Below are positions 1 through 1,405 of a stretch of 64,000 nucleotides of DNA, piece after piece. Positions within the stretch are counted from its first letter, which is position 1; every line of letters starts with the position of its first letter. This DNA is from Escherichia phage dune: the sequence record MN850636.1. One strand, written 5' to 3'. The notes under the pieces are model-generated. The model was not told where the DNA came from, searched no databases, and worked only from the letters and a program-made list of their open reading frames with translations. Made by a program: the position numbers and the translations under genes.

Positions 1-1405
1 AAGCCTTCTTAACAACCTATACAATCACCTTAACCATCTCTCTATACCCTCTTAGAAGCTCCTATACACCTCTTAATCTCTAGGTTATCTGTGTTACTTA
101 ACAGTAACCCATTATGTCAGCTATGACACCCTCTATAGGTGTTCACTAGGTATTACTAAGCCTCTATATAGACTGTTTTAACAAACTTAACAGGAATATC
201 TTTACAGACCTTATCTCACAAGGTCTAACACGGTACTAACAAGGTATCTTATAAGCCTGTTTCTACCTGTATTTTTAAAAGACTGTATAGGTAATTATTC
301 AGAATCTTAAAATTTTTATAAAATAGGACTATCAAGTCATTTTTTAGGGTCTTTGAAGGAACTGAAAAATATCTGATTAGGATGTATATCTGCTTGGTAG
401 CCCTTAACAGCTCCTTAACACCCCCTTTGCAAAATTTTAAAATATCCTTAACAATCTCTTAACAGTTCTCACATCTTCTTAACAACTCTTCAAAGGTCTT
501 AACAGTTTCTTAACAGAACTAACAAGGCTGTAACAGTTTTCTAACAAGTGCTGAATAGTCTTTACAGATGCTTAACAGATGGCTAACAAGAGCTAACAAG
601 TTAATTTTAAAGAGTTATTTTGTTAAGATAATTAACAAGTTCCTAACAAGTGTTTAATCTTTTTAACAAGCTATTAACATGGTCACTACTCTTTTCTTAT
701 CGTTCCCTTTCCTTTCTTAGTGATTCTTTAAACATACCTCTTAAAAGCTCTGTATAGCTCTGTATAGCCCCTTTTAAGTCTCTTCCTAGTAGTTACCCCT
801 CAACTGTATTGATAGCTCTTTATAGGGCTTTACAGAAGCTTTAAAGGCTATGTCAAAGACTCTTACAAGGCTTTTACGTGGTCTTAACAGAGATTTAACA
901 AGGGGCTAACAAGTTGCTAACAAGTGTCTTAAAAGCATAACTATGTAGGGTTTGTTAAGAAATTGTTAAGAAAATGTTAAGGGGGCTAGCATTTACGTAA
1001 CTTTTAAGCTACTTTTACGTAACTTCATAACCCCCTATAACATACTTTTAAGACACTAACAATAGGATTCGATAGAATCTATCTCATAGTCCTTTTTAGA
1101 TATTCACAAGATAGCTAACGAGATAATAAAGCTTACACCCTTATAAGATTCTTTTAAGTCTCTGGGAAGCTTTATAAAGGGCTTTTTAGGGTGAGTTAAT
1201 GCAATCCCTTAAGTTAGGTTGATAAGGCTGTTATAGAGCTTTATAGAGCGTTTAAACGGTTGCCCTTCCCTTTCGGGTTATGGGCTTATATTTAAGTTGA
1301 TTTGATAAAAGGCTATAGAGTAGACTATAGAGTTATTGCTTTTTAAGGTCTGATAAGATTCTGGAAAGGAAAGGGAAAGGGTTGTATAAGGGATTTGATA
1401 AGACG
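1..1405. repeat. Non-coding repeat-rich region with several motif families (YTAACAR, CTCTATAG tandem pairs, CCCTTTCC/GGAAAGG inverted copies, TTTTARGGTCT)
   Basis: No substantial ORF; tandem pairs at about 750-773, 1218-1245, 1312-1335; TTCCCTTTCCTTTC at 703-718 versus GGAAAGGAAAGGGAAAGGG at 1364-1382. Confidence 0.5.
401..680. repeat. Phased array of about 18 YTAACAR motifs, mostly 10-11 bp centre-to-centre; candidate protein-binding iterons (origin, pac site or enhancer)
   Basis: Hand-located copies at 404,415,448,459,479,499,510,519,530,541,561,572,583,593,632,643,663,674; no ORF of 60 aa or more in 1-1470. Confidence 0.6.

Follow-up and report, generated by a model that had tools for sequence, protein, structure and literature searches.

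A stretch of 64,000 nucleotides from the sequence record of Escherichia phage dune (MN850636.1), referred to here as the window, opens with a non-coding stretch in which the short motif TAACA recurs at close and regular intervals, and the question raised by this locus is which process of the phage such an array serves. The original prediction, made from the sequence alone, interpreted the array at 401-680 as a cooperative protein-binding site and offered three roles for it: a replication origin, a packaging site for a terminase small subunit, or a partition or enhancer-like site. Our analysis places the array almost certainly within the direct terminal repeat (DTR) of the virion chromosome and, with modest confidence, points to a cis-acting signal through which the terminase would recognise the DNA and cut the chromosome ends.

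Positions 1-1500 of the window match 256 phage records, nearly all from Felix O1-like myoviruses (Felixounavirus) and with 90-95% identity, and by sequence comparison the window is a Felixounavirus genome. The DTR of a virion chromosome is represented by a single copy when the sequence is assembled or concatemeric, and its limits were placed with the help of related records. Both ends of the records of I14.1 (581 bp) and of the Mooglevirus HP1 (570 bp) carry identical repeat copies, which begin with GCCCCCTTAACA and end with TGTTAAGGGCTACC, corresponding to window positions 986 down to 396. The 618-bp “DTR” annotated in the UAB_69 record corresponds to 394-988 and is 2 nt wider on each side. 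For the Kolesnikvirus SPARTY a terminal repeat of 439 bp has been reported, with ends determined by PhageTerm; these ends (CTGCTT/AGTGG and AGTGGC/TAACC, the slash marking the cut) are homologous in position to the window boundaries, CTGCTT/GGTAGCCC and AAGGGGGC/TAGC. Erwinia phage vEam_PM_6 was also considered as a boundary reference and set aside in favour of SPARTY, as its record lacks a repeat at both ends and is not opened at a physical end. Because the boundaries of I14.1, HP1, UAB_69 and SPARTY map to 394/396 and 986/988, the repeat in the window is taken to span 396-986. Terminal repeats have also been reported for UAB_Phi87 (608 bp, with ends determined experimentally from Bal31 digests and run-off sequencing; PMC4837284) and Ro111lw (613 bp). 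Judged by homology to these relatives, the repeat is a short exact DTR of the T7 type, present at both physical ends and duplicated there. In window orientation, the virion chromosome would start at 396, run through the rest of the genome and back via 1-395, and end with a second copy of 396-986.

Within this repeat, the plus-strand TAACA copies of the left array start at 405, 416, 449, 460, 480, 500, 511, 520, 531, 542, 573, 584, 594, 633, 644, 664 and 675, with a TTACA at 562. All 18 sites listed in the original prediction are present; 14 of them match the strict pattern YTAACAR, the other four being TTAACAC (415), GTAACAG (530), TTTACAG (561) and TTAACAT (674). Two sub-types, CTTAACAG and CTAACAAG, can be distinguished, each with eight exact copies in window 1-1450. 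The further copies claimed at 883-920 were found as well (right-hand cluster in Table 1), as were the scattered ones in 1-240 (at 10, 99, 179, 188, 226 and 237), while three inverted copies close to the right end of the repeat had not been listed. Based on the 86 plus-strand TAACA in the other 62.5 kb, 0.39 copies are expected per 280 bp, and the Poisson probability of 17 is 2e-22. Counted on both strands, the 591-bp repeat holds 25 cores, compared to 2.5 ± 1.6 (maximum 9) in its dinucleotide shuffles, and of these roughly 25 cores 21 point one way and four the other. The densest other 300-bp stretch carries at most six TAACA, in a search of the window plus the 23 kb missing from it, for which Felix O1 supplied the sequence (~87 kb in total). 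This top density outside the terminal region, with six TAACA/TGTTA in 300 bp, lies at window ~14951-15250 within a minus-strand open reading frame (ORF) of 788 aa and is probably due to chance. No ORF of at least 40 aa overlaps window 1-1342 according to the ORF scan, in agreement with the non-coding status assigned to the array. A structured RNA was discarded as an explanation, Rfam giving no hit at E ≤ 1 in window 1-1600.

The steps between the 18 sites of the left array are 11, 33, 11, 20, 20, 11, 9, 11, 11, 20, 11, 11, 10, 39, 11, 20 and 11 bp. A single period fits these sites best at 10.30 bp, with a vector strength R of 0.83 that 5 of 20,000 random placements of an equal number of sites reached; the first 14 sites alone give 10.45 bp (R = 0.90). 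For a period of exactly 11 bp R amounts to only 0.11, which, together with the mixture of 9, 10, 11 and 20 bp steps, indicates helical phasing rather than a plain 11-bp tandem. The proposal that neighbouring sites are spaced 10-11 bp or multiples thereof apart, on one face of the helix, therefore agrees with the positions found, and the suggested check of motif positions and their periodicity comes out in its favour.

Regular spacing of this kind might in principle be a neutral by-product, namely an 11-bp tandem of the microsatellite kind that grew by slippage in non-coding DNA the phage can do without and is now decaying. TRF does detect short tandem runs of 10-11 bp, and the indels that distinguish related phages come in repeat-unit steps: in an alignment of the window with ten relatives from Felixounavirus, Mooglevirus and Suspvirus, all indels above 1 bp among the 11 DTRs measure 10, 11, 21 or 22 bp. 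The DTR lengths of relatives (558, 569, 570, 580, 581, 591 and 614 bp) likewise differ in steps of about 11 bp, and match lengths over dozens of records show the same quantisation. We nevertheless regard this explanation as very improbable. In the same alignment the spacers have diverged more than the core: the five positions of TAACA show a conservation of 0.91-0.97, against 0.69-0.81 in the flanking positions, a contrast that was reached in none of 5000 circular shifts and that is somewhat inflated by the tendency of aligners to line up repeated cores. Enrichment is also seen in alignment-free counts for four Ounavirinae lineages: the repeats of Mooglevirus and Suspvirus hold 23-26 cores, that of Kolesnikvirus has 21 and that of Wc4 (unclassified Ounavirinae) 18, each far above the respective shuffles, and the best period falls between 10.25 and 10.40 bp in 12 of 12 genomes. 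A long-range period held by mixed steps is not what a plain 11-bp tandem would leave. The motif and the local spacing 11, 20, 20, x, 9, 11, 11 are moreover common to Felixounavirus and Kolesnikvirus, between which BLAST finds only one piece of 84 bp with ~75% identity, and one 21-bp indel lies outside the repeat units and still keeps the phase. Repeat slippage alone could yield the 11-bp indels, which counts against a selective interpretation; taken together, however, core conservation, cross-lineage counts, shared period and whole-turn indels argue for selection on both the core and its rotational phase rather than for neutral slippage. The general idea of a protein that binds cooperatively along one helix face is supported by the phasing, the core conservation and the whole-turn indels.

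The arrangement of the motif with respect to the chromosome ends is summarised in Table 1. The left array and the left chromosome end are separated by 8 nt, and the last of the inverted copies falls 6 nt short of the right end. Of only three occurrences of CCCTTAACA in the 64 kb, two are in the mirror-placed boundary elements, the left one of which is invariant in 11 of 11 aligned Felixounavirus, Mooglevirus and Suspvirus sequences. As the boundary element is inverted at the two edges, both physical ends, read inward, open with the same pair of sites. The layout of the inverted copies at the right boundary recurs in SPARTY and Wc4. Between the arrays a conserved block, a polypyrimidine stretch and degenerate copies of the repeat are found.

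Table 1. Positions of the features identified in and around the terminal repeat (window coordinates).
Feature	Position	Strand	Characteristics
Direct terminal repeat (DTR)	396-986 (591 bp)		Placed by homology, with 2 nt uncertainty at each edge; GGTAGCCCTTAACA...TGTTAAGGGGGC
Left array	401-680	+	17 exact TAACA and one TTACA variant in a single orientation; period 10.3-10.45 bp
Left boundary element, CCCTTAACA-N4-CTTAACA	401-421	+	Chromosome end 5 nt outside; forms an inverted-repeat pair with the right boundary element
Right boundary element, CCCTTAACA-N4-CTTAACA	964-983	-	Chromosome end 3 nt outside; mirror of the left boundary element
Conserved block, CCTTTGCAAAATTTTAAAATATC	424-446		Best-conserved part of the DTR across genera including Kolesnikvirus; also present in Pectobacterium phage Wc4
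Right-hand cluster	884-924	+	TAACA at 885, 896, 907 and 918 in exact 11-bp steps; degenerate copies from ~818
Inverted copies, TGTTAAG	953-981	-	Starts at 953, 964 and 975 in 11-bp steps; abut the right DTR boundary
Non-coding flank preceding the right-end DTR copy in the virion	1-395		Six scattered TAACA, and CTATA/TATAG
Non-coding flank following the left-end DTR copy	987-1450		TATAG, TTTAAG and TTACGTAA repeats; terminator at 1412-1432 (-)

This layout favours a function in packaging and end formation, because the array lies between two mapped cuts, is bordered by mirror-image boundary elements and forms a cluster that is unique in the genome. As in pac and cosB sites, short boxes are found right beside the cleavage positions, the outermost TTAACA lying 8 and 6 nt from the homology-placed ends of a repeat with 25 cores. 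Among the three roles originally offered it is the packaging site that is supported, by the location inside the DTR and by these short distances; the other two are not. The mechanism we propose is as follows. In the concatemer, a single repeat copy would join neighbouring genomes, and its approximately 25 TAACA, facing one side of the helix, would serve as docking sites for numerous molecules of a DNA-binding protein of the phage, for which the small terminase is the most plausible choice; this protein would coat the repeat over its full length or wrap it. The two CCCTTAACA-N4-CTTAACA elements, mirror images of each other, would then position the nuclease of the large terminase, so that on each side it cuts a few nucleotides beyond the outermost site. 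These two cuts would define the chromosome ends, and the repeat would subsequently be duplicated, as in other phages with short DTRs. The binding of a protein, its identity and the link to cleavage are inferred here from the arrangement of the sites.

The same evidence of location could be invoked for other functions of the array within the DTR, such as annealing or recombination of repeat copies during the formation of concatemers, or the binding of a protein that protects or tethers the ends. That both virion ends begin inward with the same TTAACA pair is indeed what would be expected for an end-binding factor. On the other hand, homologous annealing needs neither an internal motif nor helical phasing, an end-binding protein is not known for the Felix O1-like family, and the candidate protein discussed below points to the terminase. 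We therefore consider these functions unlikely, while noting that this explanation overlaps with a role in packaging rather than excluding it.

The best-conserved part of the repeat, at 424-446, includes the palindrome TTTGCAAA (426-433) and is overlapped by a sigma-70-like TTAACA-17-TAAAAT (415-443), for which the promoter scan gave 10 of 12 matches; the block could be a promoter, or else a binding site distinct from the array. Its promoter-like sequence, and the fact that TTAACA matches five of the six positions of the sigma-70 -35 hexamer, could suggest that the whole array has a transcriptional or nucleoid role, as a promoter cluster, an RNA polymerase sink, an insulator between converging transcription units or a landing pad for a host factor. 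Direct repeats of 10-11 bp are also reminiscent of the tandem sites of response regulators of the OmpR/PhoP type. Promoter-like hits are, however, not in excess (6 compared to 4.0 ± 2.1 in shuffles), most copies have no -10 partner, and the core TAACA is kept in 21 of 22 sites, which is unlike OmpR and PhoP half-sites. The motif is enriched nowhere else in the genome, and the uniqueness of the cluster in ~87 kb argues against a general promoter or regulatory motif. A transcriptional or nucleoid role is for these reasons quite unlikely.

Transcription around the repeat also bears on the possibility of a replication origin. In relatives, the plus-strand genes stop ~230 bp ahead of window position 1 and the minus-strand genes begin at 1471, and two transcription units therefore converge at the repeat region. 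These units comprise genes 97-131/1-23, which are assumed to form the early unit, and genes 40-24 (Whichard et al., PMC3185647). The only terminator found in the terminator scan is a minus-strand hairpin at 1412-1432, which corresponds to t23 as listed for Felix O1 (PMC3185647), and the array does lie beyond the terminator of the early operon, as had been proposed. Early and replication transcription was placed by Whichard et al. (PMC3185647) as starting between genes 96 and 97, away from this convergence, which speaks against an origin at the repeat.

If the repeats were iterons for a phage or host initiator, the AT-rich segment at 594-632 could be the unwinding element. The repeats resemble the iterons of lambda ori, P1 oriR and pSC101, the binding of which is cooperative, in that many copies in the same orientation adjoin an AT-rich stretch (here 40 bp with 85% A+T), and T7 has origins near its genome ends. 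The unit found here, however, is a conserved core of 5 bp phased at ~10.4 bp, with dominant steps of 9-11 and 20 bp, whereas iterons are direct repeats of 17-22 bp spaced at ~22 bp. No DnaA box was found even with one mismatch allowed, nor an IHF site, and the same search returned no Chi sites. The nine flanking genes showed no Pfam domain at all, and hence neither a recognisable initiator nor a helicase loader; the combination of DnaA box, AT-rich element and adjacent initiator is not found here, although the AT-rich 40-mer exists. An origin would also leave the location of the array in the DTR, with its mirror-image layout about the two chromosome ends, unexplained. Cumulative GC skew, which only tracks gene orientation, was uninformative in this respect. 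An origin is therefore an unlikely function for the array. A partition site (parS or centromere-like), also put forward originally, found no support, since the Pfam search of the nine flanking genes revealed no Par-like domain and the phages carrying the array are virulent myoviruses.

With packaging as the favoured function, the question arises of which protein could read the array. In Felix O1 the large terminase TerL (gp52) is present and no recognisable small terminase (TerS) was reported (Whichard et al., PMC3185647), nor is a TerS annotated in the Felix O1 or Bas63 records; the TerL gene falls outside the window. We propose as candidate small terminase and array binder the DUF5681 protein ORF41 of Felix O1 (123 aa; NC_005282, 21665-22036), which is encoded by the first gene of the late unit and the homologue of which is encoded ~8 kb beyond the window start, outside the window; this is a lead rather than proof. 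Distant DUF5681 homologues were found directly upstream of, or overlapping, the TerL gene in three unrelated loci with two TerL families (one database search), and the position directly upstream of TerL is the classic place of a small terminase. The family has a nearly invariant N-terminal motif (KG-SGNP-GRP-GS-N) that includes an AT-hook-like GRPKGSxNK arm. A search with this motif against the 177,635 sequences of the PDB gave a single match, to the HMG-I(Y) AT-hook in its DNA-bound form, 2EZD (RPRGRPKGSKNK with NPSGRPKGSRNK), which at E = 0.21 is not statistically significant by itself. An oligomer with arms reaching into the minor groove would suit a short AT-rich core that is presented once per helical turn. 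The Pfam AT_hook model was not reported for the DUF5681 protein even at E ≤ 10, full-length ORF41 had no match among PDB sequences, and neither NCBIfam nor PHROGs assigned a function to ORF41 or ORF51. The Sf6 small terminase appeared at rank 5 of the Foldseek search (E = 5) and was not considered as evidence.

Several observations weigh against this interpretation of the repeat and of its binder. The cuts lie 5 nt outside the boundary element on one side and 3 nt on the other, so that the symmetry is approximate. In Kolesnikvirus the outermost left site is missing and its counterpart on the right has degenerated to TTTACA, which indicates that the outermost site is not the sole determinant of cleavage. 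We know of no demonstration that the comparable repeat arrays of T7, the best-studied phage with a short DTR, bind terminase. As to the DUF5681 protein, its link with the terminase rests on gene neighbourhood in other phages, while in Felix O1 itself ORF41 and TerL are ~8.6 kb apart with a tRNA cluster in between; in addition, the AlphaFold2 model of the protein is poor (pLDDT 65, pTM 0.35), and its comparison with the PDB by Foldseek gave no match at E < 1.

A more far-reaching version of the packaging model, which we consider doubtful at present, would treat the entire DTR as one nucleoprotein machine. In this version DUF5681 small-terminase rings or filaments would place one AT-hook-like arm in the minor groove of one TAACA per turn over ~57 turns, forming a ruler that sets both cuts and with them the length of the repeat. 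That repeat lengths change by whole turns would then be explained by the ruler. If true, this would represent a previously undescribed type of packaging-site recognition and would provide Felix O1 with its “missing” small terminase.

Several known systems share part of this organisation. At the concatemer junctions of T7 and T3, short-repeat arrays (SRL and SRR) and a pacB site reportedly occur. As proposed here, these phages have a short exact DTR (at most a few hundred bp) of which each concatemer junction holds one copy, arrays of short repeats (about 7 bp in T7/T3) tied to the repeat boundaries, and ends that arise when the terminase cuts at specific sequences and the repeat is then duplicated. 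In T7, however, the 160-bp repeat is bordered by the arrays instead of being filled by them, the motif is different, and the strict helical phasing and mirror-image boundary elements are particular to the phages studied here. The terminase lineage is also unrelated, the Felix O1-like TerL falling in a DTR cluster of its own (Bardina et al., PMC4837284). Promoters for T7 RNA polymerase, moreover, are absent here.

The pac site of P1 is said to consist of seven TGATCA/G hexamers that are bound by PacA and form two clusters, with the cut between them. Both systems thus have numerous copies of a very short motif grouped in a pair of clusters about the region of cleavage, but P1 performs headful packaging from a single cut between the clusters under the control of Dam methylation, whereas here two precise cuts 591 bp apart are proposed and GATC is absent. 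In SPP1 (pacL and pacR) and lambda (cosB), boxes for the small terminase reportedly lie on bent or wrapped DNA, and repeated boxes at whole helical turns form a nucleoprotein complex that sets the nuclease at a nearby cut. These systems use 2-4 boxes of 7-16 bp and helix-turn-helix proteins, unlike the ~25 pentamers over ~590 bp described here and a candidate binder that has an AT-hook-like arm and no recognised helix-turn-helix. Twort-like and SPO1-like phages are said to have inverted 12-bp repeats that bracket long terminal repeats; as in the present case, a short inverted repeat at both DTR borders suggests one recognition element used in two orientations. Their terminal repeats, by contrast, measure several kb (~8 kb in Twort-like phages), and to our knowledge no phased internal array has been described in them.

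Similar arrays were also sought in other sequences. A scan of IMG/VR for three phased TTAACA copies gave mostly chance matches in AT-rich contigs. One 169-kb contig of an apparently unrelated large phage (IMGVR_UViG_3300021399_000003) has at ~7300-7540 direct TTAACA followed by inverted TGTTAAG copies in 11-bp steps, ending with ATGTTAAGGGCTGCC, an array that closely resembles window 950-990; this contig was discarded because Pfam recognises none of the ORFs next to the array. The flanking 82-aa gene, used as a tblastn query, yielded no genera beyond those already compared.

Just outside the DTR a second family of repeats is found. CTATA and TATAG are present in 10 and 8 copies, respectively, in window 1-1500, where about one would be expected, and lie mostly in the two flanks, with examples such as CTCTATAG and GCTTTATAGAGC concentrated at 17-170 and 1229-1330. 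SPARTY carries CTTAGAAG/CTGAGAAG repeats at the equivalent places of its flanks. In addition, a perfect inverted repeat of 14 nt (TTCCCTTTCCTTTC at 703-716 and GAAAGGAAAGGGAA at 1364-1377) has one arm within the DTR and the other outside, near the t23 terminator.

Some further observations concern the genome and the database records. The sequence GATC does not occur in the 64-kb window, while dinucleotide shuffles predict 179 ± 13 copies (both strands) and a second-order Markov model 227; the absence of MboI/GATC sites has already been reported for the genus (PMC5477317). The opening point of most Felixounavirus records is arbitrary; the terminal repeat consequently lies internally and is often covered by tiny coding sequences annotated as “hypothetical protein” that are probably spurious, for example UAB69_gp027 (78 nt). 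The record of Escherichia phage vB_EcoM_I14.1 (PP892526.1) is labelled Demerecviridae/Tequintavirus; given its 89-kb genome, with a terminal repeat and flanking genes ~89% identical to Felixounavirus, this label looks like a taxonomy error.

The terminal repeat of the Felix O1-like family and its boundaries are already known. For the array, its phasing, the boundary elements and the small-terminase candidate, no description was found in the papers searched, and the PhageMaP paper on the Felixounavirus Bas63 contains nothing on the terminal repeat. The boundary sequences allow permuted Felixounavirus records to be re-opened at their true ends, and the repeat defines a minimal cis element for constructs intended for engineering or transduction. 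Salmonella typing, biocontrol and therapy make wide use of Felix O1-like phages, and the way in which their DNA is recognised and cut is the gap addressed here. A conserved phased array between homology-placed ends, combined with a candidate protein, provides a testable model of end formation for a terminase lineage unrelated to that of T7, and one that goes beyond the label of a short, T7-like DTR.

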